NCBI GenBank assembly: GCA_024762485.1
Contig: JANTHH010000001.1
Location: forward strand, 1 to 48,966
Direction: 5' to 3'
Source of the DNA: Chromatiales bacterium
GTDB taxonomy: Bacteria > Pseudomonadota > Gammaproteobacteria > Chromatiales > Chromatiaceae
Length of the DNA stretch: 48,966 nucleotides
Part shown: positions 187 to 13,010 of the stretch, piece by piece
How the letters are laid out: each line of letters starts with the position of its first letter
How positions within the stretch are numbered: the first letter of the stretch is position 1
Made by a program: the position numbers and the translations under genes
Notes under the pieces: model-generated
Seen by the model: the letters and a program-made list of their open reading frames with translations, nothing else
Database searches by the model: none
What the model was told of the DNA's origin: nothing

Positions 187-1466
187 CCCGCTCCCACGAC
201 CTGTTCGAAAAAGCCCGGCGCCACATACCCGGCGGCGTGAATTCCCCGGTGCGGGCCTTCAAGGGCGTGGGTGGCGACCCGGTATTCATCGACCACGCCG
301 AGGGGGCCTACCTGTTCGACAGTGATGGCCAGCTGTACATCGACTATGTGGGATCCTGGGGGCCGATGATCCTCGGTCACACCCACCCCGAGGTGATCGC
401 CGCGGTAAAGGCCGCCGCCGACAAGGGCCTGTCCTTCGGCGCCCCCACCGAGGTGGAAATCCGCATGGCCGACCGGGTGTGCGACATCATGCCCGGCATG
501 GACATGGTACGCATGGTCTCATCAGGCACCGAGGCCACCATGAGCGCCATCCGCCTGGCGCGCGGCTATACCGGCCGCGACAAGATCGTCAAGTTCGAGG
601 GCTGCTACCACGGCCACGCCGACTCGCTGCTGGTGAAGGCCGGTTCCGGCATGCTGACCCTCGGCGAGCCGTCCTCGCCCGGCGTGCCCGCGTCGCTGGC
701 CGAGCATACCCTCACCCTGAACTACAATGACGCCGAGCAGGTGAAGGAGACCTTCGCCAGGCTCGGCGAACAGATCGCCTGCATCATCGTCGAGCCGGTG
801 GCCGGCAACATGAACTGCATCCCGCCCGTGCCCGGCTTCCTCGAGACCCTGCGCGCACAGTGCGACGAGCACGGCGCGGTGCTGATCTTCGACGAGGTGA
901 TGACCGGCTTCCGGGTCTCGCTCACCGGCGCCCAGGGCCACTATGGCATCCAGCCGGACCTGACCACCCTGGGCAAGGTCATCGGCGGCGGCATGCCGGT
1001 GGGTGCCTTCGGCGGCAAGGCCGAGATCATGCAGAAGATCGCCCCGCTCGGCCCCGTCTACCAGGCCGGCACCCTGTCCGGCAATCCGGTGGCCATGGCC
1101 GCGGGCCTGAAGACCCTGGAACTGATCTCCGCCCCCGGCTTCTACGCAGACCTGTCCAGCAAGGTCGACAGGCTGGTCGCTGGCGTCATGCAGGCCGCCG
1201 CCGATGCCGGCGTCCCCTTGGCGGAAAACCACGTCGGCGGCATGTTCGGCTTCTTCTTCACCGGGGCTGGACCAGTCACCGACTTCGCCGGTGCCACCGC
1301 CTGCGACCAGGAACAGTTCAGACACTTTTTCCACGGCATGCTGGACCGTGGCGTGTACCTGGCGCCTTCCGCCTTCGAGGCCGGCTTCGTCTCCGCGGCC
1401 CACAGCGGCAAGGACCTCGACGCCACCATCACCGCCGCCAGCGAGGTCTTCGCCGATCTAGGCTGA
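183..1466 (+). CDS. hemL: Glutamate-1-semialdehyde 2,1-aminomutase
   Basis: 427-aa ORF with the typical HemL N-terminus ([25 protein letters not shown]) and class-III aminotransferase body ([28 protein letters not shown]). Confidence 0.97.
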
Positions 1467-3863
1467 TGTCTCCGGCGGCGCATCAAAGGCATACTCCTCC
1501 GCCCCGAGGGGCGGCTGTACGAAATAGCCCTGCACGAGGTCCACGCCACAGCGATACAGCTCGCTCAGGACCTCTGCCGTCTCCACGTAGCCGGCGACGA
1601 CCCGCGGCCCGGCCTTCTGGATGCGCGCCACCACCTCGCCCACATATTCGACCTGTGCCGCATCCTGCGCCAAGGCACGGGTCAGCGCCTGTGGCAGCTT
1701 GACCAGGGCCGGCCGCAGGGTGTGAATGATCTGGCTTCCCCGCTTGCTGGGGATCACGCCCTCCACCATCAACTGACAGCCCAGCGCGGTGAGTGGGCGA
1801 AGGCCTTCGGCCATCGCCTCCAACGGGACATCCTGTCCCGGTCTGTCGAAGGAGAGACCGATCAGGCTGGCCGGCAGGCCGTGCCTGTTCAACGCGGCAA
1901 CGAGCCAATCAGGGAATGCGGGATCCAGCAGACTCTGCTGCGAAATCTTCATGAACAGCTGGCCCTGCCATCCCTTGCCGACATGGGGTGCAGCCCACGC
2001 CAGCACGCCCTCGATGACATGCTGATCGAGGGTCTCGGCCAGGCCGGCGTAGGGCATGAGGCGCATGAAATCCGATGGCGGAGCACCCTCGCCGGGGACA
2101 TCCGCATCGCACAGGCGACTGCGCACTTCGATGCAGTCATTGGCCCCGCTGACCAGATCGACCATGGGCTGCATCAGCAGACGCAGACGCCGCCGCGTCT
2201 CGTCGAGGTCGGCCTTCAGTTGCGCCGCCCGGTTTTTATTCGTGGCCACCCACAGCCTGCGCGCGGCCTCCAGACCCTGGGCCACCACCCGCCCGCCACC
2301 GGCCTTCTGTGCCTTGCGGCAGGCCAGGCCGGCGCGCCGGATCTGTTCCACCACCGAAAGCTGAGGCTCGCACATCACCAGACCACCTGAATTGCCCGGC
2401 CAGTGATGATCTACCTTGCAGATATCCTGTGCCAGCAGGCGTGCCTGCCCGAACCCGAGGTGGCGCATCACCATGGCGACACCGTGGGCAAAGCGCAGCG
2501 GGTGGGCATCCGGATATCGCCTGGCCAGGTTCGACATCAGATGCTCAAGTGCCGATTCCAGGGCACTGAGATCCTCGCTGCTGGCAGGGATATCCGGTTC
2601 CAGGTAGAGCAGTGCGCCACCCTCTTCGGCCGTCGCCACCTCGAGCAGCTTAAGCAGGTTTTCGTTCGCCAGCAGGTCCATGTGATGAAAGACACCCGCA
2701 GCGGCCTCCCGGCGTGCCCGCGCACGCTGCAGGTGCAGACTGACGGCATCCACCAGCAGGGCCGGGGAGATCGGCTTCTGCAGGAAGTCATCGCCCCCGG
2801 ACTTCAATGCCGCAAACTGGCGCGCCGGGCTCTGCTCACGGGAGAGAAAGAGGACGGGGACATCGTCCCAGGCCGGGAACTGCCGGATCAATGCGGTCAG
2901 CTCCTGGCCATCCACCTCCGGCATGTAGAGATCCATGAGGATCAGGTCCGGCCGGTGACGCTGCAGCGACTGTTCGATGGCCTCCGGCTTCAGCAGCCCC
3001 TCGACGTCGAAACCGGCCTGCCTGAGCACCCCCTGCAGATAGGCCGACTGGTCCGCATCATCCTCAACCACCAGGATCCGGGCGCCGCCGGTCACCGGAT
3101 CGAGCAACAGCAGGAGACGCTCCAGCAGCAGGTGCATGTCCACGGGCTTGGTGAGGTAGGCATCACCGCCAGCGCGGATCGCCCGCAGACGACTCTGCAT
3201 GTCCCGCCGGGCGGAGAGGAAGATCACCGGCAAGGGCAGGCGATTGGCCCGGCGCATGGCGGCAATCGCATCGATGCCGCCAAACTCGCCCTCCGGCAGC
3301 ATGACGTCCATGATCACCGCTGCCGGATTCTCTGCCTCCACCGCCGCAGGCAGCAACGCTGCCGAATCCATCACCCGGACCCGGTAACCCGCCAACTTCA
3401 GTTGCGCTGTCAGGTAGTCGGCCATGTCGGCATCGTCATCTACCAGGTACAGCAGATGACCTCTCTGCTCCCCCGGCGCCGCTGGCCGGTTGGTGGCAGC
3501 ACCCACTGTCGTGGAAGGCTCGTGCAGCGGGTGGGTGACCGCGTCCTCCAGGCGGCCGAAGAGGATCCCCAGCCTGCCGACGATCTCCGGGTCGATCCCG
3601 CCGGACACCGGCATGAGCTCTGCCAGCGCCTGTTGCAATTGATCGGCAGCCGCACTGATCTCCAGGAAGCGGAAGCTGCCGCTGGCACCCACCAGACTGT
3701 GCAGGTGCCGCATCAATGCATCGAGGTCCCCGCTCTCGGCAACGCCTTCCGCCACCTGCCGCCAGCAACGGCGGATCTCATCGAGCCGTTGCGGCAGCCC
3801 GTCGATGAATCGCTGACGTACCGCCGCCAGCTTGCCGTTCCCGGGAATTCCCTGTTCCTGCAT
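1458..3863 (-). CDS. Multidomain signalling protein: Hpt - REC - REC - degenerate GGDEF-like - degenerate EAL-like
   Basis: 801 aa. The N-terminal Hpt has [10 protein letters not shown]. Two receivers carry intact Asp/Lys pockets (VIMDVMLP...YLTKP and LILMDLYMP...FLQKP). The GGDEF-shaped region has RFAHGVAMV where RxGGDEF is expected. The EAL-shaped C-terminus (QPMV..IEVRSRL...VAGYVET...QGYF) has the DDFGTG position reading VEGVIP. An RBS (GGAAGGA) lies 6 nt upstream of the ATG at 3863. Confidence 0.85.
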
Positions 3864-3878
3864 CTCGTCCTTCCTGTC

Positions 3879-5408
3879 CTAGCCCAGTTCACTCAGGGTC
3901 TTGAGCAACACAGCGGGATCGATGGGCTTCGCCAGATAGGCATCGACGCCGACCGCAGCCGCCTGCGCCTGCTCGGCCTGCCCCGCCGCCGCAGACAGTA
4001 TGATCACCGGCCCCTCGTACCCCTCATCTCGGGCCGCCTGCACGACCTGCGGTCCCATCATGTCGGGCAGATGCAGATCCATGAGCAGCAGGTCCGGTTT
4101 CGAGGCGGTCAGGGCCGCCAGCGCCATCCCGCCATCCGCTGCAAAGGCGAGGTCGTAACCACTGTCTTCGAGATAAGCCCCGAGCAGTGCCCGGATATCG
4201 GGGTCATCCTCGACGATCAGCAGATGCCGCCTGCCGGTCGTCCGGGCCCGTGTGACCGGTATCCGATGGGACTCGGGGGCATCGATGTCGAAGACGAAGC
4301 GGCTGCCCTTGCCCGGTGTGCTCTCCAGCTGCATCCGCCCCCCCATGCGTTCAACCAGTGCCAGGGTGATGGCGAGACCCAGCCCGGCGCCATGCCTGCG
4401 AATGGCAGGCTGCCCGGCCTGTCTGAAAGGCTCGAAGATACGTCGTTGCTCCGCCACCGGGATCCCGCTGCCGGTATCGCTGACCGCGACGTTGAGCCGG
4501 GCGTCCTGCCAATCGAGTGTCACCCGGATCTCGCCCTGTTGCGTGAACTTGAATGCGTTGCCGGTGAGATTGACCAGGATCTGCCGCAGGCGCATGCCAT
4601 CGAGCAGCAGGCAGGCCGGCAGTCGGGGGCTGACCTCGACGGTGAAGCCGATACCCGATTGCCGGGCAGTCCGCTCGAACATCTGGCGAATGACCCCGGC
4701 GATCTCACGCACGTCGGTCTCTGTGGGATTCAGCTGGAGTTCATCGTTCTCCAGCTTCGCCTGGTCGAGCAGATTATCAACCAGGCTCAGCAGGTGGCGT
4801 GCCGCGCCTTCCATGGCGTCGAGATAGGCCGGCTTCATCTCGCCCTGATGGCGAAGATCGAGATATCCCAGGATGCTGGTGAGCGGCGTGCGGAATTCGT
4901 GGGACATGTTGCCGATGAACAGGCTCTTCAGTTGGCCGGCCTCCTCCAGCCTGCGATGACTCTCCTGCAGACGCACCTGGCTCTGTTCCAGTTCGGCCAG
5001 CAGTTTTTCCCGCTGCCGGTGCAGCAGCGCCAATTCATTGGCCGCCTGTTGCCGCTCCCGCCGCTGGGCCTGTTCATCCGAGGCATCGAGCAGCACGATG
5101 CCGAGTCCTGCAGACAGCGGCACCAGGTGGACATGGGCCGTGTGCGCCACCCCCGGACGGGTCTCCATGCTGAGGAACTCCAGCACCAGCGGCTCGACGA
5201 GTCCTGCAGCCGTGCCACTGAGCCAGGGCAGGACATTGTCGAGCCGTTCCCCCTCCACGAGGTCCGCCAGGCCGTAAAAGTCCAGGTCGCCGGAGGCGCC
5301 GGTGAGCCGCTCTTGCGCATCGGCCACCAGGCACAACGGGTGCACGCGGTGAAACAACTGGCGGTCCAGGTAGTGCTGCAGTTCCTGCGGCAGGCGGTGC
5401 TCTTTCAT
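3879..5408 (-). CDS. Soluble hybrid sensor histidine kinase (unassigned N-terminal domain - coiled coil - HisKA - HATPase_c - REC)
   Basis: I chose the ATG at 5406-5408 (MKEHRL...) rather than the 618-aa ORF-track start, because it overlaps the stop of the upstream GTPase gene as ATGA. H-box SHEFRTPL, N-box NLTGNAFKFT, G1 DTGSGI, G2 GAGLGLAI. The C-terminal receiver has LLLMDLHLP...YLAKP. No hydrophobic TM segment is present. Confidence 0.9.
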   Translation of the reverse strand: MKEHRLPQELQHYLDRQLFHRVHPLCLVADAQERLTGASGDLDFYGLADLVEGERLDNVLPWLSGTAAGLVEPLVLEFLSMETRPGVAHTAHVHLVPLSAGLGIVLLDASDEQAQRRERQQAANELALLHRQREKLLAELEQSQVRLQESHRRLEEAGQLKSLFIGNMSHEFRTPLTSILGYLDLRHQGEMKPAYLDAMEGAARHLLSLVDNLLDQAKLENDELQLNPTETDVREIAGVIRQMFERTARQSGIGFTVEVSPRLPACLLLDGMRLRQILVNLTGNAFKFTQQGEIRVTLDWQDARLNVAVSDTGSGIPVAEQRRIFEPFRQAGQPAIRRHGAGLGLAITLALVERMGGRMQLESTPGKGSRFVFDIDAPESHRIPVTRARTTGRRHLLIVEDDPDIRALLGAYLEDSGYDLAFAADGGMALAALTASKPDLLLMDLHLPDMMGPQVVQAARDEGYEGPVIILSAAAGQAEQAQAAAVGVDAYLAKPIDPAVLLKTLSELG

Positions 5409-5905
5409 CGTGCAGCAATCGCGTTCGCCAGCTGCTGAAATACCGCGCCGACGCCCTCGCCTGTCTTGGCGCTGCAACATTCCACGGGCCAGCCCGCAGC
5501 GATCCGTTGCGAGATATCGTCCGGCGTCACCTCCCACGCCGCCTTCAGGTCGGCCTTGTTGACTGCCGCCACAAAGGGGGTGTCGCCGAGCATCCCGCTG
5601 ACCTGTTCCTGCAGCCTGCAGGCGGTCTCCAGGGTGTCCCGACGGGTACCGTCGATGACCAGCAGGTAGCCCGCAGCGCCCCGTAGATAGGCGCTGCCCG
5701 TCGCATTCAGCACATCGGTCCCTGCCAGGTCCCACAACACCAGCTTCATCGCCATGCCCCCCTCCAGTTCCACCTGCCGTGTGTCGATCTTGACGCCGAC
5801 GGTGGTGAGATATCTGTCGGAGAAGGTGCTATGCACGTAACGCGCCACCATGCTGGTCTTGCCCACCGAAAAATCACCGACCATGCAGATCTTCGCCGCC
5901 TGCAT
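5405..5905 (-). CDS. Ras/Rap-like small GTPase (166 aa)
   Basis: Starts at ATG 5903-5905 (MQAAKICMVGDFSVGKT), 1 nt after the stop of the upstream gene. G1 GDFSVGKT, switch-I TTVGV, G3 WDLAGT, G4 NKAD and G5 SAK occur in canonical order and spacing. The longer ORF-track N-terminus overlaps the upstream gene and has a low-complexity R/P/C composition. Confidence 0.85.
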   Translation of the reverse strand: MQAAKICMVGDFSVGKTSMVARYVHSTFSDRYLTTVGVKIDTRQVELEGGMAMKLVLWDLAGTDVLNATGSAYLRGAAGYLLVIDGTRRDTLETACRLQEQVSGMLGDTPFVAAVNKADLKAAWEVTPDDISQRIAAGWPVECCSAKTGEGVGAVFQQLANAIAAR

Positions 5906-5906
5906 G

Positions 5907-7880
5907 TCAGCCCGACCCGCCCTGTGTGTCGCCCTCCGGCGAGAGGAAACGGATATGCACATCCGCCCGCCGGCTGGCCAGTTCGGGCACGCCACGGCCC
6001 CGCTTCGGCACCGCCGTTTCAATGAGGAACAGTGATGCCGGCAGCCCCTCGCCAACCAGCAGGTCAACCAGCCGCCGGGCCCGTGCCGCGGCGAGCTGGC
6101 GGTTGTACTGGGGCGTGCCAACAGCATCGGTACGGCCTGTGACCACCACCTTGAAGGGCCGCTGCAGCCGCTCCGCCAAGTGCTGGATCTCGCGCAGGCT
6201 GTCGGCCAGCGACGACATGCCCGCCAGCTGGCCGGGATCGGGATCAATGCCATTGGGGAAGCCGATACTCACCTTGTCGACCTCGGCCACCAGGGTGTCG
6301 AGCCGGCGGGATTCACGGACCACCAGCGCCTTGTCGTCGAGCCCGGCAAAGCCGGGCAACTGCTCCAGCGGAAGGATCGACAGGCGCTGCTTCCAGTCCA
6401 GCGGGGCGTCACCCTCGAGCATGATCCAGCCATCCTTCACGCGCAGAGTGACCCCTTCCGGAGGATCGATCATGGCCCTCGCCTGCTGCAGCAAATAGCT
6501 GTCGCGGTCGGTCAGCCGACTGTCATCGAAGGCGTTGATGCCGGGGATCGCCGGTGCCAGCAGCCGGGCACGCTCGATCCAGCGGGCATCCGGGACGCCT
6601 TCGGCCAGCAGTACGCCATCCGCGCCCAGTCTCAGATTGACCGTGGGCGGCGGCGCGAGGATACGCTGTGCCCGGCGCAGGGCGAACGGGGGCGAGAGAT
6701 CCTGGTAGGGCCGCCAGTTGAACGTCACCGCATCCGCCGCTAGGCCACTGCCAGCTACCAGCTCGTCGAGCGGTGGCGCGAGGGGGTCCCGCAGGCCCTC
6801 GATATGCAGCCGGCCATCCGTCCGGTCGACACGTGTCACCACCACGCCGGGACGGGACTCGAGCTGTTGCAACAGTGCCGCCTCCCGTCCCCGGCGTTCA
6901 CTGGCGGCACGCTGCTCGTCCCAGGCCTGGTAACCGAACCATGACAGCAGCAGCACGACAAACGCCAGCAGCCACCACAGAAAGGCGCGGCGCGGTCTCT
7001 TGTCCGTCTCACGCTCCTCCGACACCAGGCAGCGGCGCAGCTCCGGCTGCACCGCCAGCAGCGAATCGCTGTCGCCGTCGAAGGCCTTTATCGCAGCAGC
7101 AAATTTCTCGTGCACGTCCTCGAGGATGCCCATCAACCGCTGCCGCAGGTCGGGTGGCGGCATACCTCGGATGACGCAGGCCATCAGGGCGTAGGGTCCG
7201 TGCAACAGCAAGACGGTGTGCTCGCCCACGTCCACCGTATCCAGGGTGCCCTCGCCGCCCGCGACGAAGGCATCCTTGACGAAGTCCTCGATGGCAGTGA
7301 GCATCGCGGAGACCGCGTCCGCGTCCCGGTCCAGGGCCGTGGGGTCGGCCACATGCTGCATCAGCAGACCACTGCCGGGCTGGATCAGGAATACCTGTTC
7401 CACCCGGTAGATGAGGGTGTGGCGCAACACCACGGCAGAGAACGGCACGCCGGCACGCATGGCCTCGATGCGCCAGGCGATGCCTCGGGGTGAAAGGCTG
7501 TGCTCCAGTGCCTTGTTGAGTGCATCGACGATGCCGCGAAGTGATTCGGCGATGGCGCGCCGGATGGCGGGACCCATGACCGGGAACAGGGCATCGGCCA
7601 GGGAATGGGGGTCGGCCTGGACGGAGCGATGCAGACATTCGGCCACTGGCGCCTCGAGGGCGCTGATCAGGGCGTCGCCCTGCCGTAGTTGCAGCTGTAC
7701 CGCATCCGGCAGCACCTGCGATACGTCCTGGGCTCGCAGGGGCAGATCATCGATACGCTGACGCAGCTGCTCGAGGTCCTTCTGCTCGGGCTCGAACAAA
7801 AGGCGCTTCAGGGTATCGAGTGCGTCCGCGTCCGTGGTGGACGGCCGATCATCCCGGGGTTTCGGTCCCTGCTGATTCAC
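5907..7880 (-). CDS. Bitopic membrane protein: cytoplasmic Roadblock/LC7-like region - 1 TM - periplasmic BON-like repeats - OmpA_C-type peptidoglycan-binding domain
   Basis: 657 aa with a GTG start. It has a single hydrophobic helix (AFLWWLLAFVVLLLSWFGYQAW, aa ~299-320). The C-terminus (VVVTGRTDAVGTPQYNRQLAAARARRLVDLLV...RRADVHI) matches the OmpA/MotB peptidoglycan-binding signature (TD..G....N..LS..RA). The cytoplasmic aa ~155-260 has a Roadblock-like pattern (details in the findings). Confidence 0.8.
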   Translation of the reverse strand: MNQQGPKPRDDRPSTTDADALDTLKRLLFEPEQKDLEQLRQRIDDLPLRAQDVSQVLPDAVQLQLRQGDALISALEAPVAECLHRSVQADPHSLADALFPVMGPAIRRAIAESLRGIVDALNKALEHSLSPRGIAWRIEAMRAGVPFSAVVLRHTLIYRVEQVFLIQPGSGLLMQHVADPTALDRDADAVSAMLTAIEDFVKDAFVAGGEGTLDTVDVGEHTVLLLHGPYALMACVIRGMPPPDLRQRLMGILEDVHEKFAAAIKAFDGDSDSLLAVQPELRRCLVSEERETDKRPRRAFLWWLLAFVVLLLSWFGYQAWDEQRAASERRGREAALLQQLESRPGVVVTRVDRTDGRLHIEGLRDPLAPPLDELVAGSGLAADAVTFNWRPYQDLSPPFALRRAQRILAPPPTVNLRLGADGVLLAEGVPDARWIERARLLAPAIPGINAFDDSRLTDRDSYLLQQARAMIDPPEGVTLRVKDGWIMLEGDAPLDWKQRLSILPLEQLPGFAGLDDKALVVRESRRLDTLVAEVDKVSIGFPNGIDPDPGQLAGMSSLADSLREIQHLAERLQRPFKVVVTGRTDAVGTPQYNRQLAAARARRLVDLLVGEGLPASLFLIETAVPKRGRGVPELASRRADVHIRFLSPEGDTQGGSG

Positions 7881-7910
7881 CTGGATTCAATCCCTGTAGC
7901 ACAGGCCATT

Positions 7911-8489
7911 TCAGGATTTGTCCATGCCTTCCATGTCGAATGAGCCCTTGAGCCGCAGTGCCACCTCGCCAAGCATGTCGGCAAGACTCTCGCGGCTCAG
8001 TTTGTCGTCATGCAGTTGCTGCGTTTCCTTATCGAGGGAATCGAGCAGTTGCTCGCCCTGCTTGCGCATCGCGGCCTGCAGCACATCGACCTGGTCGTGC
8101 AGTTCCATGCGCAGGTCCGTGAGCTGTTTGCCGGCATCCTTGTGCACCTCGTCAAGGCGTTTCGCCAGTGAATCGTCCGCCTGCTTGAGCACATCCGAGA
8201 GGCTGCCCAGCGCCTGGGCCGCGGCCTTTTTTTCTGTCTCCAGTGCATTGCCGAGCCGTTCGACCTGGGTGTTCAGCAGATCTTCCAGCCGCTTGAAGCG
8301 TGCATCGAGATCATCCTGCAGCTGTACCCTGTCCCGCTCGAGACGCTCCTCCAGCCGCTGGAAGCGACGATCGAAGTCCCGCATCTGTCCACCGAACAGA
8401 ATTTCTCGAATCTGATCAACATTGTCAGACGTCGCTTCGGTGGCTGCCTCTACCCCCGCGACCTTCTTGGATGCCTTGTTGCCTGCCAT
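7911..8489 (-). CDS. Acidic coiled-coil protein, function unknown (first gene of the operon)
   Basis: 192 aa with an ATG preceded by AAGGAG. Long heptad-like E/R/L/Q/D-rich sequence with no TM or signal peptide. It lies 30 nt upstream of the next gene on the same strand. Confidence 0.6.
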   Translation of the reverse strand: MAGNKASKKVAGVEAATEATSDNVDQIREILFGGQMRDFDRRFQRLEERLERDRVQLQDDLDARFKRLEDLLNTQVERLGNALETEKKAAAQALGSLSDVLKQADDSLAKRLDEVHKDAGKQLTDLRMELHDQVDVLQAAMRKQGEQLLDSLDKETQQLHDDKLSRESLADMLGEVALRLKGSFDMEGMDKS

Positions 8490-8671
8490 CTCGTGGACTC
8501 CTTGCCCGGGCTATTGCTTCAAACTGTGACCTGATTCTATATCTTGCAATTGCCAGACCCTAGCACTTTAACTACTTGAAATCTCCAATCCGGCGACTGG
8601 GAAATGTCGTCAATACAGATGCCTGCAGCGACCGATGGATACCATTTCGGGCGCTAACTGCAGACACCAAA

Positions 8672-8700
8672 TAAAAAAGACCCCGCCAGATGGCAGGGTC
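8672..8700 (-). terminator. Rho-independent terminator after the lipoprotein gene
   Basis: Minus-strand RNA reads GACCCUGCC-AUCU-GGCGGGGUC: a 9-bp stem including one G.U pair, followed by UUUUUUAU. It lies 32 nt downstream of the stop at 8732. Confidence 0.72.
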
Positions 8701-8731
8701 TCCTATTACGTACCGCAGTGATGTCAGGCGA

Positions 8732-9814
8732 TCAACCCGCCGACATGACACCCAGTTTTTTCAGCGTCTCAAGGGTCAGCTGACCGACAGCCAGCCCGTT
8801 CTTGCGCTGATAGGCCTTGACGGCAGCCATGGTCTGGCGACCAACGATGCCATCGATCGGACCGGGGTCGAAACCGTCATCCTTCAATGCCACCTGTAGT
8901 CGCTTCACCACGTCCTTGGTGGTATTGGTTTCACAGAGGATTGGGCGCCACTCAAGCTCGCCCTCGCTGACCAGCTGGCGTTCCTTAATGGTGCGATACT
9001 CCGCCGGGATATCAAATTGCTGCTCGCTGGCATCCTTGACCATCTTGCGCACCCTGATGGTCTTGTATTCCGCCGGAACCACCTCGGTAGCCGTCTTGGC
9101 AGACTCGACCACCACGCGCTTGCGCACGACCTTGTACTCGGCCGGAATGGCCACCTTGCGGACACCGGCCGGCTTGACCAGTACACGCTTGGCAACGTTC
9201 TTGTACTCGGCCGGGACCTCCACCAGACACATGATCTCGCCGGTGGCATCATCGATTTTCTCGATCGGACCGCGACCCTTCTTCCAGGTGGTATAGGCAT
9301 CGCGCACGAGCACCTTCTCGTACTCGGTCTCATACACCGCGGGCTCCTCGATCAGCTTGCTGGAGGCCTCCTTGACCAGCACGCGCTCTTCCACCCAGTC
9401 GTATTTCGCCGGGATGACCTTGAGCACTTCGGTGGGCTCCTTCACCAGCACCTTCTCTTCTACCCATTCATAGACGGCGGGCACCGTCTGGATACGCTTG
9501 CCGGCCTCCTTCACCAGGACGGTTTTCTCGATATCCTTATATTGTGCAGGCGCGAATACCCGGGCATAACACTCGCCGGGCTGTGCCTTCGGCGGCAACA
9601 GGTTGTTCCCCGCATCACCCTCACCCGCAGACTGTGCATCACGGGTGGACATCTCACCCCTGAGGCCTTGCAGCGATTGCTTCAGACTTGCGTTCTCCCG
9701 CTCCGTTTCCTTCAAGCGCATTTCCAGATCATCACGTGACTGCATACCGCTACAGCCCGACAGACCAATGATCGCGGCGCTCGCCAACAATCCAAATACT
9801 ATTCTTTTGTTCAT
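8732..9814 (-). CDS. Lipoprotein with eight 23-aa tandem repeats and a C-terminal PG_binding_1-type peptidoglycan-binding domain
   Basis: Starts at ATG 9812-9814 (MNKRIVFGLLASAAIIGLSGC) with lipobox LSGC and a GGAGAG RBS. The repeats follow [VI]PA.Y..V...VLVK.A. The C-terminus (VVKRLQVALKDDGFDPGPIDGIVGRQTMAAVKAYQRKNGL) is a typical PG_binding_1 motif. Confidence 0.85.
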   Translation of the reverse strand: MNKRIVFGLLASAAIIGLSGCSGMQSRDDLEMRLKETERENASLKQSLQGLRGEMSTRDAQSAGEGDAGNNLLPPKAQPGECYARVFAPAQYKDIEKTVLVKEAGKRIQTVPAVYEWVEEKVLVKEPTEVLKVIPAKYDWVEERVLVKEASSKLIEEPAVYETEYEKVLVRDAYTTWKKGRGPIEKIDDATGEIMCLVEVPAEYKNVAKRVLVKPAGVRKVAIPAEYKVVRKRVVVESAKTATEVVPAEYKTIRVRKMVKDASEQQFDIPAEYRTIKERQLVSEGELEWRPILCETNTTKDVVKRLQVALKDDGFDPGPIDGIVGRQTMAAVKAYQRKNGLAVGQLTLETLKKLGVMSAG

Positions 9815-10033
9815 CGGATCCTCTCCAAATTTTATGAACGTCTTTCCGAACCCGTAACTCAGCCACCCTGTCTGCTCAGCCCGACAGCCCCTGCTCGAAT
9901 CACCCTCGCCATCTGTCACGACCAATCAATCAGACGCTTGGTATTTCACTTTGTTTTCAACAACTAAGCGCATTACCCGGAACATCTGACCGACGACTGA
10001 CCGCACCTGAAAACCGTGAGTCGACCAACTATC

Positions 10034-10050
10034 AGCAAGGGCAGTGCCAA
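10034..10050 (-). promoter_or_regulatory. Sigma-54 (RpoN) -24/-12 promoter
   Basis: The minus strand reads TTGGCAC-TGCCC-TTGCT, which matches TGGCAC-N5-TTGCW exactly. It is oriented toward the lipoprotein gene, whose ATG is at 9814 (~210-nt leader). Confidence 0.7.
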
Positions 10051-10150: not shown

Positions 10151-10199
10151 ACAGGCTGGTGGTGGGCCGGGATAAATCAGTGGAGTGAAGGATCGCCGG

Positions 10200-10526
10200 T
10201 CAGGTGGGGGAGCCGGTGTCCTCGGGAGGGATGATCTCTATCGATGCGAGATGTTGATCGAGCCGCTGCAGCTGTTGATCGATCACCGCATCGTCCGACG
10301 CCTGCGCGGCCTGCTCCAGGGCAAGACCGATGGCTGACAGGTGATCAAAACCATAGCTGCCCGCGACACCCTTGAGGTTGTGAGCCAGCTGCCACAGGCG
10401 TCGATGGTCCCGGGCCTTCGCGGCAGCACGAATCACGTCGAGTTCCCGGCGGCGGTTCTCAAGGAAGGCCGGCACCAAGTCAGCGATGCCGGCCGCGATC
10501 CTTATCCGGTGAGGCTGCCCGCTCAC
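10200..10526 (-). CDS. Stand-alone histidine phosphotransfer (Hpt) protein
   Basis: 108 aa with the Hpt signature AHNLKGVAGSYGF. Its GTG start overlaps the stop of the upstream activator gene (GTGA). Confidence 0.8.
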   Translation of the reverse strand: MSGQPHRIRIAAGIADLVPAFLENRRRELDVIRAAAKARDHRRLWQLAHNLKGVAGSYGFDHLSAIGLALEQAAQASDDAVIDQQLQRLDQHLASIEIIPPEDTGSPT

Positions 10527-11893
10527 TGGCCGGCCGACTCGGCCTCGGCCCGGAAGCTCGCCGCATCCAGACCATGGCGCCCCAGCAGCTTGTAGAATTC
10601 GGTGCGATTACGCCCGGCCATGCGCGCGGCAGTACTGACATTGCCATTGGTGGTGCGCAACAGACCGACCAGGTAGCGGTGTTCGAAGGCATGCTTCGCC
10701 TCGTCGAGCGACTGCACCTCACCCACCTGGTCCGCCAGGGCCTCGACGACCAGCTGGTCGGGGATCACCTCGGAGGTGCTCAGCACCACGCAGCGTTCAA
10801 CCAGGTTGCGCAGCTGCCGCACGTTGCCCGGCAGGGCGGCCTGCAGCAGGTACTCCTGCCCCTTGGGGGAGAAGCGCCGTCGCGCCGAGGGCTTTGTCCC
10901 CGCCAGGGACGCGAGGAAATGCTCGATCAGCAAGGGGATGTCTTCCCGGCGATCACGCAGCGGGGGTATCAGCAGCGGCACCACGTTCAGCCGGTAGTAC
11001 AGGTCTTCGCGGAATTCATGGCTGCACACCATGGACAACAGGTCATGGTGGGTGGCGGAGATGATCCGCACATCGACAGGCACCGCCTTCAGCGCACCCA
11101 CCGGGCGCACCTGGAAATCCTGCAGCACCCTCAGCAGCTTGGCCTGCAGGTTGGCGGGCATGTCGCCGATCTCATCCAGGAACAGGGTGCCCTTGTCCGC
11201 CGCCTGAAACAGGCCGACATGGCGGCTGTTTGCGCCAGTGAACGCACCCTTCTCATGGCCGAACAACTCGGACTCAAGCAGGTGTTCCGGCATGGCACTG
11301 CAGTTGATGCTGACAAAAGGTCCCTGGCGACGCGGGCTGGCCCTGTGGATCGCCTTGGCCAGCTCCTCCTTGCCGGTACCGGTCTCTCCGCTCAGCAGCA
11401 GCGTGGTATCGCCCATCGCCACCAGACGGGCCCGCTCCACCAGCTCCACCATGGCCGCGGAGCGGTAGACCAGCCCCTCACCGAAGGCCTGGACGGCCGC
11501 ACCCTGCTTGCCTCCGGCACGCTGCAGTGCGCGCTCCACCGCAGCGACCAGGTCCGGCTCCCGAATGGGCTTGGTGATGAAATCCGATACCCCCAGGTGT
11601 GCCGCCTGGATGGCATCACGCACCTCTGCCTGGCCGCTGATCAGGATCACCGGCAACACCGCATCCAGCTGGTGGATGGCCGACAACAGGCGCATGCCAT
11701 CGAGTTCTTCCATCATCAGGTCGCTGACCACCAGATCCGGGCGGCGCCGCTCCATCACCGCCAGTGCCTGACGCCCGCCAGCAGCGGCCGTCACCTGCAT
11801 GCCGGCGAGTTGCAGCCAGCGTTGCGTCAGCGCCAGATGATCGGGGTCATCGTCGACGACAAGGATGTGGGCGCCTTTGGCATGGTCGGACAT
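10523..11893 (-). CDS. Sigma-54-dependent response regulator (REC - AAA+ - Fis-type HTH), NtrC/LuxO class
   Basis: Receiver ILVVDDDPD...VVSDLMM...ITKP. Walker A GETGTGKE, GAFTGA loop, Walker B LFLDEIGDM. The C-terminal HTH is NVSTAARMAGRNRTEFYKLL. I preferred the ATG at 11893 (AGGAAA RBS) over the TTG at 11917. Confidence 0.93.
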   Translation of the reverse strand: MSDHAKGAHILVVDDDPDHLALTQRWLQLAGMQVTAAAGGRQALAVMERRRPDLVVSDLMMEELDGMRLLSAIHQLDAVLPVILISGQAEVRDAIQAAHLGVSDFITKPIREPDLVAAVERALQRAGGKQGAAVQAFGEGLVYRSAAMVELVERARLVAMGDTTLLLSGETGTGKEELAKAIHRASPRRQGPFVSINCSAMPEHLLESELFGHEKGAFTGANSRHVGLFQAADKGTLFLDEIGDMPANLQAKLLRVLQDFQVRPVGALKAVPVDVRIISATHHDLLSMVCSHEFREDLYYRLNVVPLLIPPLRDRREDIPLLIEHFLASLAGTKPSARRRFSPKGQEYLLQAALPGNVRQLRNLVERCVVLSTSEVIPDQLVVEALADQVGEVQSLDEAKHAFEHRYLVGLLRTTNGNVSTAARMAGRNRTEFYKLLGRHGLDAASFRAEAESAGQ

Positions 11894-11920
11894 CGTGGGG
11901 TTTCCTGGCCTGTTCAAGGA

Positions 11921-11948
11921 AAAACTGTCGTGACCAGACGACAGTTTT
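11921..11948. repeat. Perfect 11-bp inverted repeat AAAACTGTCGT-N6-ACGACAGTTTT in the divergent intergenic region
   Basis: Read directly from the sequence. It lies 28 nt upstream of the activator ATG and ~150-175 nt upstream of the plus-strand sigma-54-like promoter. Confidence 0.5.
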
Positions 11949-12095
11949 TAAATTTCGCGCAGCATGCAATTGCTCGTGCCTGCGGCCCGATCAATCACCT
12001 GAACACCATGCCCCAACAAAACACGACACACAACACCCTGTTACACATAGCTTTTTCGAAGATCAATGACATACGAACCCGCATCCCATGATAAT

Positions 12096-12110
12096 TGGCA
12101 CGCAATTCGC
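12096..12110 (+). promoter_or_regulatory. Near-consensus sigma-54 promoter upstream of the MscS-family gene
   Basis: TGGCAC-GCAAT-TCGC has correct GG/GC spacing and one mismatch in the -12 box (TCGC instead of TTGC). It lies ~70 nt upstream of the ATG at 12180. Confidence 0.45.
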
Positions 12111-12179
12111 TGTTGGGACATGTGGCATGCAAACATCTCTGAACACGTTACCAACCAACTAACAACGAGGATCAATGAA

Positions 12180-13010
12180 ATGGACATCGCAGGATTTGAC
12201 ATCAACCACCTTATAGACATCTACCTGATTCCCTGGGGCATCAAAATCGTCACCGCCCTGGCGGTCTTCATCATCGGCCGCTGGATCGCCAAGAAGCTGG
12301 TCAGCGTGCTGAAGAAGGTCATGGCCAAGGGCTCCGTTGACGAGATGCTGAGCGCCTTCATCGGCAACATCGTCTATGCCCTGCTGCTGGTGGTGATCGT
12401 GCTGGCCGCGCTGGAACAGCTCGGCGTCAACACCACCTCGGCACTGGCCATACTCGGTGCTGCCGGCCTGGCCGTCGGTCTGGCACTGCAGAGTTCGCTG
12501 TCCAACTTCGCCGCCGGCGTCATGCTGATCATGTTCCGCCCCTTCCAGAAGGGTGACTTCGTCGAGGCCGCCGGACAGAGTGGTGTGGTCGAGGAGGTGC
12601 AGATCTTCAATACCACCATGAAGACCGGCGACAACCGCCAGATCATCATCCCCAACGGTCAGATCTACGGCGGCACCATCGTCAACTATTCCGCCAAGGA
12701 TACCCGTCGCATCGACCTGGTGATCGGCATCGGCTATGACGACGACATCGCCAAGGCCAAGGAAATCCTTGCCGACCTGATGGTGCAGGAGAACCGCATC
12801 CTCGCCGACCCGGCACCCGCCATCGCACTGGGCGAACTGGGCGACAGCAGCGTCAACTTCAATGTACGCCCCTGGGTCGCCTCGGGCGACTACTGGCCGG
12901 TGCGCGGTGACCTGCTGGAGCGGATCAAGCTCGCCTTCGATGCGGCCGGCATCTCGATCCCCTACCCGCAGCAGGATGTGCACATGTACGAAGAGAAAAA
13001 GATTGCCTGA
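12180..13010 (+). CDS. Small-conductance mechanosensitive channel, MscS family
   Basis: 276 aa from the ATG at 12180 (RBS GAGGA). Three TM helices are followed by the MscS beta-domain pattern (FRPFQKGDFVE...GVVEEVQIFNTTMKTGDNRQIIIPNGQI). Confidence 0.9.
   Translation: MDIAGFDINHLIDIYLIPWGIKIVTALAVFIIGRWIAKKLVSVLKKVMAKGSVDEMLSAFIGNIVYALLLVVIVLAALEQLGVNTTSALAILGAAGLAVGLALQSSLSNFAAGVMLIMFRPFQKGDFVEAAGQSGVVEEVQIFNTTMKTGDNRQIIIPNGQIYGGTIVNYSAKDTRRIDLVIGIGYDDDIAKAKEILADLMVQENRILADPAPAIALGELGDSSVNFNVRPWVASGDYWPVRGDLLERIKLAFDAAGISIPYPQQDVHMYEEKKIA

Follow-up and report, generated by a model that had tools for sequence, protein, structure and literature searches.

The block between positions 1458 and 13,010 of the window (the whole stretch of 48,966 nucleotides that was analysed) encodes a small GTPase, phosphorelay proteins, a sigma-54 activator and envelope proteins side by side (Table 1), which raises the question of whether these form one system and what it would respond to. 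The best explanation, held with modest confidence, is that the whole block is a Group 1 Rup GTPase module joined to a multistep phosphorelay and a sigma-54 activator, with mscS and a lipoprotein gene as targets. It is based on the gene content, folds, motifs, promoter-like sites and conserved or recurrent synteny described below, from which we infer the interactions, the phosphotransfer and regulatory links, the direction of signalling and the stimulus. The same parts are found together across phyla, and this provides a testable clue to the role of a barely studied GTPase family.

The domain inventory of a first-pass annotation was reproduced with Pfam in all its counts and at the positions it had assigned: one HisKA/HATPase_c kinase, two Hpt domains and four REC domains (one in the kinase, two in the 801-aa protein and one in the sigma-54 activator). 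The three envelope-facing products that it had named (OmpA-like protein, PG_binding_1 lipoprotein and MscS) were also present by Pfam. Six products of the block are exact matches to called proteins in a public collection, and the same block is present in a second (twin) assembly, in which the 166-aa GTPase gene model is called as well. However, the annotation did not identify the core (3879-8489, minus strand), which by gene content and order is the already described Group 1 Rup small-GTPase system, defined by computation (Wuichet and Sogaard-Andersen, 2014; PMC4316618). The published system consists of a coiled-coil (CC) protein, an Unc-TM-OmpA protein, a Ras-like GTPase lacking the glutamine of G3 and an output protein whose N-terminal domain has an invariant glutamine (PMC4316618), and all four components are found in the block in the published order. 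Of 80 loci, 75 have a homologue of the CC gene immediately upstream of Unc, and in 71 the GTPase gene flanks Unc. In the window, the GTPase gene starts 1 nt after the Unc stop codon, and its own stop codon overlaps the start of the kinase gene, which is the fourth, output gene of the module. No experimental study of Rup systems of any kind was found in the literature. New compared to the published description are the activator/Hpt synteny, the sigma-54 and palindrome sites, the recurrent channel, lipoprotein and DUF4332 neighbours, and the folds of Unc and of the kinase N-domain.

Table 1. Features of the block, ordered by position in the window.
Feature	Position	Strand	Basis
Hpt-REC-REC-EAL protein, 801 aa	1458..3863	-	Pfam Hpt 8e-10, two REC 6.5e-44, EAL 2e-30
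Cytoplasmic hybrid histidine kinase, 509 aa	3879..5408	-	Pfam HisKA, HATPase_c, REC; exact called-protein match
Ras-like GTPase, Rup family, 166 aa	5405..5905	-	Pfam Ras 2e-26; NCBIfam small_GTP
'Unc' inner-membrane anchor, 657 aa	5907..7880	-	Pfam OmpA
Cytoplasmic coiled-coil (CC) protein, 192 aa, first Rup operon gene	7911..8489	-	Sub-threshold coiled-coil Pfam matches
Intrinsic-terminator-like hairpin past lipoprotein gene	8675..8704	-	13-bp stem, then T run
Peptidoglycan-binding lipoprotein, 360 aa	8732..9814	-	Pfam PG_binding_1 1.7e-12; exact called-protein match
GlrR-type TGTC-N10-GACA site TGTCtgctcagcccGACA	9869..9886	.	Exact motif match, lipoprotein 5' leader
Sigma-54-type -24/-12 element TGGCACtgcccTTGCT	10034..10049	-	Motif search; ~220 nt upstream of lipoprotein start codon
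Free Hpt protein, 108 aa	10200..10526	-	Pfam Hpt 7e-11; exact called-protein match
Sigma-54 enhancer-binding response regulator, 456 aa	10523..11893	-	Pfam Sigma54_activat 4e-69, REC 1.4e-29
Perfect palindrome AAAAACTGTCGT-gaccag-ACGACAGTTTTT	11920..11949	.	Read from sequence; contains TGTC-N10-GACA (11926-11943)
Sigma-54-type -24/-12 element TGGCACgcaatTCGCT	12096..12111	+	Motif search; upstream of mscS, single mismatch
MscS-type small-conductance mechanosensitive channel, 276 aa	12180..13010	+	Four Pfam MscS domains; NCBIfam MscS subfamily 270 bits; exact called-protein match
Terminator past mscS	13039-13075		

The GTPase carries the motifs G1 GDFSVGKT, G3 WDLAG, G4 NKAD and G5 SAK. The catalytic Gln of G3 is absent, a Thr following DxxG, and a Gln at this position was found in only 3 of 73 homologues. 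The kinase is composed of a PAS-like N-domain (residues 1 to ~110), a long helix with Q120-Q121, HisKA, HATPase_c and REC, and 41 orthologues all share G40, Q120 and Q121. In the AF2 model (pLDDT 94.6) the N-domain models as PAS/LOV-like with a signalling helix, its best Foldseek matches being PAS/LOV sensor-kinase structures such as 4gcz, YtvA and FlrB. Orthologues of ~625 aa carry a C-terminally fused Hpt domain; a fused EAL domain was never seen among the orthologues compared.

Unc contains a cytoplasmic helical bundle (17-143), a longin/Roadblock-like domain (147-265), one TM helix (~299-322), a periplasmic region and an OmpA-like peptidoglycan-binding domain, which is a weak Pfam match (29.4 bits, cut-off 27.2) with D/R positions that are invariant in 30 homologues. 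Four homologues have BON matches in their periplasmic part. Homologues number at least 1767, and at least 584 GTDB species carry the protein. The Roadblock-like module proposed earlier had no Pfam match even at E<=10, but was supported at the level of the fold: in the AF2 model of residues 1-300 (pLDDT 81), residues 147-265 have the topology a-b-b-a-b-b-b-a and model as a longin/Roadblock fold. Among the best 50 Foldseek matches, those recognised (Mon1-Ccz1, AP sigma subunits, TRAPP, LAMTOR, MglB 3t12_C and 3kye) are all what we take to be longin or Roadblock folds, at modest E-values of 3e-4 to 1e-2. In other systems this fold is a platform for GEFs or GAPs of small GTPases. The GTPase had been described as cell-wall-tethered; it is its membrane partner Unc that is tethered to the wall, and not the GTPase itself. 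Pfam matches of the CC protein were of the coiled-coil type alone, every one below cut-off.

The activator is, as judged from its domains and profile matches, GlrR/QseF-like: it consists of a REC domain, an AAA+ domain with GAFTGA loop and a Fis-type HTH, and among NCBIfam models GlrR scores best, with 516 bits, under the equivalog cut-off of 763. The start of the free Hpt gene, whose product has the phospho-acceptor motif HNLKG, overlaps the activator stop codon by 4 nt. Orthologues of the activator lie directly upstream of the module and co-directional with it in L002, L084-L089, L092, L094 and L097. Among the closest relatives this place is taken by a GlrR-like activator, often accompanied by an Hpt gene. 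The six relatives with longer contigs (L084-L089) all have the order activator, then Hpt, a small REC protein or nothing, then CC, Unc, GTPase and HK-REC. L002 has activator-Hpt-Unc-GTPase-HK, with no CC gene detected, and the metagenome contigs L092, L094 and L097 have activator-Hpt-lipoprotein, with the module following where the contig is long enough; L093 begins at the lipoprotein gene and reads lipoprotein-CC-Unc-GTPase-HK. Hpt gene homologues stand beside the module in L002, L085, L092, L094, L097, L173 and Woeseiaceae-type loci, in many loci between activator and module or just past the kinase gene. In the Desulfobacterales loci L003, L004 and L009 the output protein of the module is the N-domain fused to a sigma-54 AAA+ activator. 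In other genomes, too, the sub-clusters are linked; they do not occur only independently. The branch that the annotation had drawn from HK-REC via the free Hpt to the activator is consistent with this synteny and with the Hpt-fused kinase orthologues, but the relay is not uniform among relatives, since a small REC protein replaces Hpt in L084, L086, L087 and L089 and L088 has neither.

The sigma-54-type promoters that had been noted before the lipoprotein and mscS genes are both intergenic and face these genes; of the elements in the window they are the two best placed. TGGCACtgcccTTGCT is the sole perfect TGGCAC-N5-TTGC within the window. In the mscS element the -12 part is TCGC, not TTGC, and a sigma-70-like promoter, ATGACA-18-GATAAT (12066-12095), abuts it. 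Motifs with at most one mismatch are at chance level in the window (5 found, 5.6 expected); the weight of the two elements lies in their position, orientation and conservation. Equivalent elements are located 170-210 nt upstream of the orthologous lipoprotein gene in L092, L094 and L097, and of 63 loci with lipoprotein homologues, 12 had an upstream motif scoring at least 9/11, compared to 1/63 and 0/63 in controls, a statistic that ignores the shared ancestry of the loci.

The binding motif of GlrR, TGTCN10GACA, lies >100 bp ahead of the sigma-54 promoter that GlrR controls (PMC3045617); the use of this E. coli motif here is an extrapolation, as the score of the activator falls short of the GlrR equivalog cut-off. 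The perfect palindrome at 11920-11949 lies ~155-170 nt upstream of the 12096 element, just upstream of the activator start codon, and is a candidate upstream activating sequence for mscS. Exact TGTC-N10-GACA sites number five in 49 kb, among them TGTCtgctcagcccGACA, which has an atypical position ~150 nt downstream of the lipoprotein -12 element; none was found within the 150 nt searched upstream of the lipoprotein promoter. The left half of TGTCtgctcagcccGACA, which reads TGTCGGGC on the minus strand, matches palindromes that precede the lipoprotein promoter in relatives: TGTCGGGGCTCCCCGACA in L085, ~135 nt upstream of the sigma-54 element heading a DUF4332-lipoprotein operon, and CGTCGGGC-N4-CCCGACA in L092, L094 and L097, ~160 nt upstream of the lipoprotein element. 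Promoter position, GlrR-type palindromes and the motif enrichment at lipoprotein homologues together suggest the sigma-54 control that had been proposed, and both the lipoprotein gene and mscS are predicted sigma-54 targets.

The lipoprotein has a lipobox (LSGC), an N-terminal coiled coil, ~8 repeats of ~22 aa ('PAxY..V.E.VLVK' in the family alignment) and a C-terminal PG_binding_1 domain, and the hairpin sets its gene apart from the Rup operon. Homologues adjoin Rup modules in L063, L079, L085, L092-L094, L097 and L141, and one stands beside a GTPase-activator pair in L170; 18 of 80 lipoprotein-homologue loci contain mscL or mscS. The lipoprotein/channel/DUF4332 set, like most lipoprotein/mscL pairs, mostly occurs without a Rup module and thus is a repeatedly recruited cassette, not an obligate part. 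Lipoprotein, DUF4332 and MscL also accompany modules with OmpR-type regulators (L013, L063 and L079).

The channel is a canonical MscS. Orthologues 58-60% identical adjoin Rup modules in L001, L004 and L173; next to the activator, mscS is found in this genome and its twin assembly alone, and L092 and L094 are without it. The sequence within 2 kb of the module (0.26 Mb) contained six MscS/MscL genes, the distal flank (0.65 Mb) 2 (Poisson P ~2e-4, kinship of the loci ignored); L173 and the window are two further cases beyond these 6. Channel and module are arranged in six ways in Gammaproteobacteria, Desulfobacterota and Acidobacteriota, and in Planctomycetota a more distant MscS lies ~3 kb from the module. 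MscS/MscL, the lipoprotein family and DUF4332 thus recur beside Rup modules in four phyla with differing regulators, and the recurrence of the channel genes supports the envelope or mechanical theme of the annotation.

The 801-aa gene is co-directional with the kinase gene, starts 15 nt past its stop codon and probably ends the operon. Its product has an N-terminal Hpt, two REC domains, a middle region (~385-545) and an EAL domain. The label of a degenerate EAL was borne out, the best solved relatives being the FimX EAL structures 4j40 and 3hv8 (E 3e-24), while a degenerate GGDEF is without profile support: the middle region had no Pfam match at E<=10, and only the ~60 residues just before EAL align with GGDEF-EAL structures of FimX and PA0861. 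Dozens of 50%-identity clusters show the same architecture over the full length. Beside Rup modules the protein was not found at the other loci examined, so that the second relay branch, drawn earlier through it, has no counterpart there; the protein looks like a lineage-specific addition, although in the nearest relatives the contigs stop at the kinase gene.

Combining these results, the following route may be proposed. Unc, with its OmpA-like periplasmic end tied to peptidoglycan and its longin/Roadblock-like domain exposed to the cytoplasm, would report a membrane-to-wall change (turgor, osmotic shift or wall damage) to the GTPase, whose nucleotide state it would alter; the CC protein may serve as scaffold. 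The GTPase would bind the PAS-like N-domain and the linker helix of the soluble hybrid kinase and set its activity, the invariant Gln-Gln perhaps completing the GTPase site in trans. Phosphate would pass from the kinase His to its own REC, the free Hpt and the REC of the activator, which would bind TGTC-N10-GACA-type palindromes and switch on the sigma-54 promoters of mscS and the lipoprotein gene. The co-transcribed 801-aa protein, probably a c-di-GMP-binding effector, would also be phosphorylated from the kinase and form a lineage-specific second outlet.

It is possible, though unlikely, that the lipoprotein and the channel are sensory partners instead of targets, or both. The lipoprotein, and perhaps the channel, would then interact with Unc in the periplasm and inform the GTPase switch, and gene linkage would reflect physical partnership, not regulation. 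The analogy is with the GlrR/QseF-type system, to which the activator is similar: QseE/QseF needs an accessory lipoprotein (PMC6075780, PMC12691602), QseG, which controls the kinase QseE. In the window and L092-L094 the lipoprotein gene also lies between Hpt and CC, within the signalling cluster, and a shared partner explains its association, with DUF4332 and MscL, with differing regulators as well as a shared target does. However, the lipoprotein showed no similarity to QseG in the searches run, most of its homologues are without a Rup module, and its own predicted sigma-54 promoter and terminator, with promoter and palindrome conserved in relatives, are direct evidence for regulated expression.

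A main output in post-translational control of polarity, motility or c-di-GMP is rated as improbable. The GTPase would then be MglA-like, the FimX-like 801-aa protein would be the principal effector (e.g., on type IV pili) and activator and Hpt would be served by another kinase; the FimX relationship and the gene position just past the kinase gene would fit this, as would the GGDEF/EAL proteins that are one of two usual Group 1 Rup output types (PMC4316618) and the control of polarity by small GTPases in Myxococcus (PMC2907295). Yet the Rup-associated N-domain is missing from the 801-aa protein, which was not seen next to other modules examined, nothing in the window was recognised as a pilus or motility gene (judged outside the block only from N-terminal sequences of called ORFs), the conserved neighbours are activator and Hpt, and it is Hpt, never EAL, that kinase orthologues fuse. 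Already disfavoured, and very improbable, is that Rup operon, activator-Hpt pair, lipoprotein gene and mscS are unrelated neighbours with chance sigma-54 and TGTC-N10-GACA motifs. The chance-level motif counts, the mscS-activator adjacency specific to this genome and the accessory genes lying mostly elsewhere in other genomes would agree with it; against it stand the activator-module order kept in at least 10 other loci, the Hpt fusions, the promoter and palindrome conserved in relatives and the enrichment of mechanosensitive channels near the module. Moreover, L004 and L009 have N-domain-activator fusions that adjoin mscS or mscL, and in L141 such a fusion stands beside mscL, DUF4332 and the lipoprotein gene.

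Between positions 1458 and 13010, ten genes could be identified by combining six-frame ORFs with Pfam, and those on the minus strand are arranged in three transcription units. The genes, together with the regulatory elements discussed below, are listed in the table. Spacing in the five-gene unit is tight: 30 nt separate the genes for the coiled-coil protein (CC) and the membrane protein Unc, 1 nt separates those for Unc and the GTPase, the GTPase and kinase genes overlap by 4 nt, and 15 nt lie between the kinase gene and that of the 801-aa protein. Six of the block's products have exact matches to called proteins in a public collection, in which the window's proteins are singletons at 90% identity, and the same block with the same gene calls was present in a second assembly, GCA_024762245.1. 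The ORFs and Pfam confirmed the inventory of the first-pass annotation, namely one kinase, two Hpt domains, four REC domains, one GTPase and three envelope proteins. Two of its labels fared differently: the GGDEF label has no profile support (Pfam, E ≤ 10), and the Roadblock-like label was borne out by the predicted fold and not by sequence. No Rfam families or tRNAs were detected in the window by Rfam and tRNA scans. A role in anti-phage defence was rejected, since PADLOC returned only coiled-coil and generic REC cross-hits.

Coordinates of the genes and regulatory elements in the block
Feature	Position	Strand	Description
Unit 1: sigma-54 activator and free Hpt	10523-11893, 10200-10526	-	4-nt gene overlap
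Sigma-54 activator	10523-11893	-	456 aa: REC, AAA+ with GAFTGA, HTH
Free Hpt	10200-10526	-	108 aa
Unit 2: lipoprotein gene, monocistronic	8732-9814	-	360 aa, lipobox LSGC, C-terminal PG_binding_1
Strong terminator 3' of lipoprotein gene	8704-8675	-	
Unit 3, gene 1: coiled-coil protein (CC)	7911-8489	-	192 aa
Unit 3, gene 2: Unc membrane protein, OmpA-like end	5907-7880	-	657 aa
Unit 3, gene 3: Ras-family GTPase	5405-5905	-	166 aa
Unit 3, gene 4: soluble hybrid kinase	3879-5408	-	509 aa
Unit 3, gene 5: Hpt-REC-REC-EAL protein	1458-3863	-	801 aa
mscS	12180-13010	+	276 aa; divergent from activator gene
Putative sigma-54 -24/-12 element, lipoprotein gene	10049-10034	-	11/11
Putative sigma-54 -24/-12 element, mscS	12096-12111	+	10/11
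Perfect palindrome, 12-bp arms, TGTC-N10-GACA at centre	11920-11949		~160 nt upstream of mscS element
TGTC-N10-GACA in lipoprotein leader	9869-9886		Downstream of lipoprotein promoter; atypical position

Rup proteins were defined as a family of prokaryotic Ras-like GTPases (Wuichet & Sogaard-Andersen, 2014; PMC4316618), and in that paper the Group 1 genes have a conserved four-gene neighbourhood. Its products are a coiled-coil protein of the cytoplasm, a protein in which a conserved unknown domain is combined with a TM helix and an OmpA domain, a GTPase without the G3 glutamine, and a histidine kinase or GGDEF/EAL output protein with an N-terminal invariant glutamine; no coupling of Rup proteins to MglB was found there. 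In the published phylogeny, Group 1 Rup proteins are the closest prokaryotic GTPases to eukaryotic Rab/Ran/Ras/Rho.

A Group 1 Rup GTPase should be a single-domain member of the Ras superfamily that is 150-240 aa long and has the canonical motifs G1-G5 with the Asp of G3. The window's GTPase was compared with this. With 166 aa, the motifs GDFSVGKT, TTVG, WDLAG, NKAD and SAK, and a Pfam Ras match of 2e-26, it corresponds to this description. The catalytic G3 glutamine is absent (DLAG-T), and among 73 GTPase homologues the position following DxxG is occupied by Glu in 42 and by Thr in 11, with Gln occurring in only 3. For the product of 7911-8489(-) Pfam matches of the coiled-coil type only were obtained. 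Unc has a TM helix at ~299-322 and an OmpA match of 29.4 bits, and 29 of 30 homologues also match OmpA. When 80 loci of GTDB species representatives were inspected, a CC homologue was found upstream of Unc in 75 and a flanking GTPase homologue in 71, many of the remaining loci being truncated at contig ends. GTDB contains at least 584 Unc loci. In the N-terminal domain of the kinase, Q120-Q121 did not vary among 41 orthologues, and in 44 locus-derived sequences these positions are 95-98% conserved. No Robl_LC7 Pfam match, which would mark a stand-alone MglB homologue, was obtained among the block's products. As all features of Group 1 Rup were found, it is concluded that 3879-8489 is a Group 1 Rup system.

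The window therefore has the same four genes as the published systems, with a histidine kinase as output and no separate mglB gene. The 2014 description covers four genes only and gives no fold for the Unc or N-terminal domains, whereas here an Hpt and a GlrR-like sigma-54 activator accompany the module, as do the lipoprotein and MscS as predicted sigma-54 targets and the FimX-like protein, and Unc and the kinase N-terminal domain are modelled as longin/Roadblock-like and PAS-like, respectively. No later paper using the Rup name or reporting an experiment on one was found in the literature searched.

Residues 1-300 of Unc were modelled with AF2 from 36 sequences (pLDDT 81). The model consists of a helical bundle at 17-143, followed by an α-β-β-α-β-β-β-α domain at 147-265, for which the pLDDT was roughly 60-98 and lowest at 181-210. 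The best 50 Foldseek PDB matches are, where recognised, longin/Roadblock proteins, and among the matches listed are Mon1-Ccz1, AP sigma subunits, TRAPP, Sec22b, LAMTOR, MglB and Roadblock/LC7 at E 3e-4 to 1e-2. With these modest E-values, the assignment of residues 147-265 to the longin/Roadblock fold holds at the level of the predicted fold. The best structural matches, Mon1-Ccz1, TRAPP and Ragulator/LAMTOR, all regulate Ras-superfamily GTPases at membranes; the likeness of the modelled domain to these eukaryotic platforms is a resemblance of fold only, at 11-22% identity. A regulator-type fold thus modelled would be present in the Rup system as a domain of the wall-anchored protein, which adds to the 2014 description.

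For the kinase, a model of residues 1-165 from 41 sequences reached a pLDDT of 94.6 and was PAS/LOV-like. The long C-terminal helix of this domain bears the Gln-Gln pair and, in the model, runs into the DHp domain. A profile of the domain found no match in PDB sequences. As neither this domain nor the cytoplasmic part of Unc gave a Pfam match at E ≤ 10, the terms PAS-like and Roadblock refer to predicted folds only.

BON-domain matches were observed in the periplasmic region of four individually checked Unc homologues, two of them in the 30-sequence alignment A1, and none was found in the window's own Unc protein. CC residues 21-48 (7911-8489(-)) and Unc residues 18-45 (5907-7880(-)) have a common N-terminal motif, D.I/L+..LF...Q.D...L.QR (BLASTP E 0.026 over 28 residues), which may be a common interaction helix. 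At L089:7569-9498, a compared locus from the endosymbiont of the scaly snail (AP012978.1), the Unc gene call is divided into two ORFs (361 and 308 aa) that overlap, possibly because of a frameshift or of decay in the reduced genome of a symbiont.

When the protein collection was searched for orthologues with the full-length kinase as query, many proteins of ~625 aa were found in which an Hpt is fused C-terminally, after REC, which argues for transfer from the kinase REC to Hpt. Such fused kinases include the homologous proteins P0128, P0138, P0141 and P0146 among others, and L091:10001-11884, and occur for example in Methylococcales. In the Desulfobacterales loci L003, L004 and L009 the fourth position of the module is taken by a gene for a sigma-54 AAA+ activator, and the N-terminal region of these activators gave no match to the kinase N-domain profile.

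Gene order around the closest Unc and kinase homologues was examined on longer contigs via precomputed Pfam annotation. In all six loci of the nearest clade (L084-L089) the sigma-54 activator comes first and the series CC, Unc, GTPase, HK-REC last, with an Hpt, a small REC or no gene in between, and in L002 it is activator, Hpt, Unc, GTPase and HK, with a CC homologue undetected. A metagenome scan seeded with the lipoprotein yielded contigs with 58-59% identity. Among these, L092 has the window's order of activator, Hpt, lipoprotein, Unc, GTPase and kinase, with the CC gene undetected, L094 and L097 have the upstream part of this order up to the contig limits, and L093 starts with the lipoprotein gene, followed by CC, Unc, GTPase and kinase. 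An OmpR-type regulator takes the activator's place in Woeseiaceae-type loci, Tahibacter, Methylococcales and Sedimenticola. The first-pass annotation had treated the block as one unit, an idea that would fail if its sub-clusters were never linked elsewhere. The orders recur in relatives, so that the activator, Hpt and lipoprotein are found linked elsewhere; for the 801-aa protein this was not observed.

In the clade of L084-L089, which has a GlrR-like activator, glmS and glmU lie directly 3' of the Rup kinase gene or within ~5 kb (L086:13954-17156, L087:15368-17988, L089:11762-14963 and L084:18546-21860), followed in L086 and L089 by the atp operon. Control of glmS by GlrR in E. coli goes through the sRNA GlmY. 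The arrangement may simply be the conserved atp-glmUS neighbourhood. At L020:5540-6769, upstream of a low-GC gammaproteobacterial Rup module, a 409-aa protein with REC and a Ser/Thr protein kinase domain is encoded between the Hpt and OmpR-type regulator genes.

Candidate sigma-54 promoters were sought by scoring GG-N10-GC sites against TGGCAC-N5-TTGCW on an 11-point scale. Only three sites in 49 kb scored at least 10/11, and two of them face the lipoprotein gene and mscS. GG-N10-GC-type motifs were found 26 times in the window versus 18.3 expected, and TGGCAC-N5-TTGC with at most one mismatch 5 times versus 5.6, so that the raw number is at chance level and the weight comes from position. Judged by consensus, by orientation towards the gene and by an activator site nearby, both elements are predicted sigma-54 promoters. 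No sigma-54 element was found 5' of the Rup operon (8490-8675). In the Sedimenticolaceae relative L002, a sigma-54-type element (TGGCACggtgcCTGCA, L002:9345 (+)) separates the Hpt gene from the Rup operon, and the Rup module there may, unlike that of the window, be under sigma-54 control. The mscS element is abutted by a sigma-70-like promoter (ATGACA-18-GATAAT, 10/12 matches), as at E. coli glmY; the two together span 12066-12111(+).

The activator's best NCBIfam model was GlrR/QseF (NF011695), whose score of 516 bits is below the equivalog cut-off of 763. At E. coli glmY, GlrR has three TGTC-N10-GACA binding sites, located over 100 bp upstream of the sigma-54 promoter (PMC3045617). Five exact sites were counted in the window. 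One forms the centre of the palindrome upstream of mscS, and none is located upstream of the lipoprotein promoter, for which the sole site is downstream. Related palindromes lie upstream in relatives: in L085, TGTCGGGGCTCCCCGACA is found ~135 nt upstream of a sigma-54 element that leads an operon encoding a 103-aa protein, DUF4332, a 58-aa protein and the lipoprotein, and in L092, L094 and L097, CGTCGGGC-N4-CCCGACA is found ~160 nt upstream of the lipoprotein sigma-54 element. Overall, a sigma-54 motif of at least 9/11 lies upstream of the lipoprotein at 12 of the 63 lipoprotein loci with enough upstream sequence, versus 1 in the reverse-complement control and 0 in the intragenic control.

The window's MscS contains all four Pfam MscS domains, covering the TM helices, the beta domain and the C-terminal domain, and scored 270 bits against an NCBIfam subfamily model with a cut-off of 321. 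In L013 and L079 an MscL gene immediately follows that of the Rup kinase, in L009 one is found no more than 0.8 kb past the activator gene, and in L054 one immediately precedes the CC gene. MscS orthologues 58-60% identical to the window's adjoin the module in L001, L004 and L173, that of L004 with its own sigma-54 element. Over the 80 GTDB loci, six channel genes were found within 2 kb of the module (0.26 Mb) and two in the distal flank (0.65 Mb), which corresponds to a Poisson P of ~2e-4 when shared ancestry of the loci is ignored. This association was the least expected result of the analysis, and no mention of a recurrent tie to mechanosensitive channels was found in the available part of Wuichet & Sogaard-Andersen (2014).

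Seen from the lipoprotein, mscL or mscS is present in 18 and DUF4332 in 13 of 80 lipoprotein loci, and a channel gene lies directly 3' of the lipoprotein gene in 11 of the 59 with enough downstream sequence. Desulfobacterales-type GTPase-activator pairs occur together with mscL, DUF4332 and the lipoprotein in L141, and with DUF4332 and the lipoprotein in L170. Most lipoprotein/channel pairs have no Rup module nearby; the set is a cassette repeatedly placed beside Rup systems, under differing regulators. DUF4332, a small helix-hairpin-helix protein, repeatedly occurs close to the lipoprotein, to the channels and to the Rup module (L079:7750-8157, L085:14611-15012, L013:988-1392 and 13 of 80 loci in L092-L171). 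It was not found in the window, and nothing relevant linking it with mechanosensitive channels was found in the literature searched. The lipoprotein (8732-9814(-), alignment A5) has tandem ~22-aa repeats, PAxY..V.E.VLVK.A, whose number differs among homologues, with two extra blocks in L063, and conserved Cys residues in GECYARV and MCLVE.

Two known systems combine a small GTPase with a Roadblock-fold partner, as is modelled here. In the actinobacterial conservon (CvnA-D) and the mycobacterial mfp conservon these are encoded together with a histidine kinase, and the proteins are thought to form one membrane-associated signalling complex. However, CvnD, the GTPase of the conservon, is a member of the MglA family and the window's GTPase one of Rup, the conservon Roadblock protein is separate and small (CvnB/MfpD) and not a domain of a wall-anchored membrane protein, CvnA is membrane-bound with HAMP whereas the window's kinase has neither TM helix nor HAMP, and a homologue of DUF742 (CvnC) is absent from the block; the conservon components include no response regulator. 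Membership was therefore rejected. In the MglA/MglB polarity switch of Myxococcus and Thermus, a Ras-superfamily GTPase is likewise paired with a Roadblock-fold regulator, and the structural matches listed for the Unc domain include MglB (3t12_C). The G3 DxxG Asp is missing in MglA, according to Wuichet & Sogaard-Andersen (PMC4316618), but kept in the window's GTPase, there is no stand-alone MglB, and the output would be a kinase phosphorelay instead of recruitment of a motility machine. On the retained Asp and the lack of a stand-alone MglB, membership of this switch was also rejected.

The best-supported reading is that the block is an envelope-state sensor. The peptidoglycan-anchored inner-membrane protein with its longin/Roadblock platform would switch the Ras-like GTPase, which would control the PAS-like hybrid kinase; phosphate would pass from the kinase to Hpt and on to the GlrR-like activator, and this would switch on mscS and the lipoprotein gene. 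For this pathway, we infer the interactions, the direction of flow and the stimulus alike. Its output end resembles the QseE/QseG/QseF (GlrK/GlrR) system of envelope homeostasis in Enterobacteriaceae: the activator is most similar to GlrR, a sigma-54 activator, a clustered lipoprotein and the envelope theme are found in both, and a TGTC-N10-GACA palindrome is a candidate activator site at over 100 bp from the predicted sigma-54 promoter of mscS. The main rival reading follows from this analogy, in that the lipoprotein might be a sensory partner, instead of or besides a target, with a precedent in QseG acting with the kinase QseE (PMC6075780). Yet the window's lipoprotein is a PG_binding_1 repeat protein unrelated to QseG, and GlrK/QseE and QseG are not encoded alongside. 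The kinase is a soluble hybrid with the Rup-associated PAS-like domain and would need an Hpt, in contrast to the membrane kinase GlrK; the activator lies below the GlrR equivalog cut-off, and, as there was no Rfam match in the window, there was none to GlmY.

For the envelope-state sensor, the proposed input is the relationship of membrane to wall, read via the OmpA-anchored protein, the switch would be the longin/Roadblock-GTPase pair, and the output would consist in transcribing the genes of mechanosensitive channels and of a wall-binding lipoprotein. If true, this would give Rup GTPases a physiological role and place mscS and mscL transcription under a dedicated sensory pathway, and the pairing of GTPase and longin/Roadblock protein that is central to eukaryotic trafficking and mTOR signalling would already work in bacterial envelope signalling. 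A wider and tentative proposal, rather less probable than its opposite, is that Group 1 Rup is a widespread cross-phylum pathway of envelope mechanics or turgor, in which a wall-anchored longin/Roadblock protein acts through the Ras-like GTPase on interchangeable regulators (a hybrid kinase feeding sigma-54 or OmpR-type regulators, or a fused sigma-54 activator) and on to a conserved emergency-valve cassette of MscL/MscS, the peptidoglycan-binding repeat lipoprotein and DUF4332. In that case, the pairing of longin/Roadblock protein and Ras-like GTPase at a membrane would predate eukaryotes. The Rup module is already known as a computational family; the Hpt-regulator relay extension, the predicted regulon, the two fold assignments and the cross-phylum association with mechanosensitive channels appear to be undescribed in the literature searched. 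The locus and its relatives turn the question of the role of Rup GTPases into a concrete, cheap hypothesis open to direct experiment, and should it fail, the block would remain a clean and well-annotated representative of a family that is known yet unstudied.

The 801-aa protein would be a local second outlet of the relay. It was not observed beside other Rup modules at the loci examined, although the contigs of the nearest relatives stop at the kinase; in L042 and L173 a small Hpt alone lies 3' of the kinase. Its architecture, Hpt-REC-REC-unassigned-EAL, is that of a widespread family in its own right. The closest solved relatives of its EAL domain are the EAL domains of FimX (E 3e-24), a c-di-GMP receptor in type IV pilus assembly of Pseudomonas aeruginosa and Xanthomonas, and like these it appears to have degenerate metal and catalytic motifs: EVR replaces EAL, and the other motifs (Asn of NxS, ExxE, DDFG, KxD) appear altered by eye when set against the canonical ones. 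The FimX-type order REC-PAS-GGDEF-EAL, with the first, third and fourth domains degenerate, was not found. The region before the EAL domain occupies the place of FimX's degenerate GGDEF domain, but this supposed GGDEF region was matchless, and Pfam gave neither PAS nor GGDEF in the protein even at E ≤ 10. Its N-terminal half consists of Hpt-REC-REC, in which the acceptor residues are intact, whereas that of FimX is a degenerate REC and PAS. No pilus genes were recognised near the 801-aa gene.

The Hpt-REC-REC N-terminal module (homologous proteins P0246-P0394) recurs in proteins of ~550, 690, 820 and >1000 aa that differ in their C-termini, which suggests an unnamed family of phosphorelay-fed output proteins. 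At 17224-19518(-), ~4 kb past mscS, the window encodes a 764-aa protein which in the second assembly is annotated as having several PAS domains and a diguanylate-cyclase sensor domain, and which could possibly be a local c-di-GMP source for the FimX-like protein.
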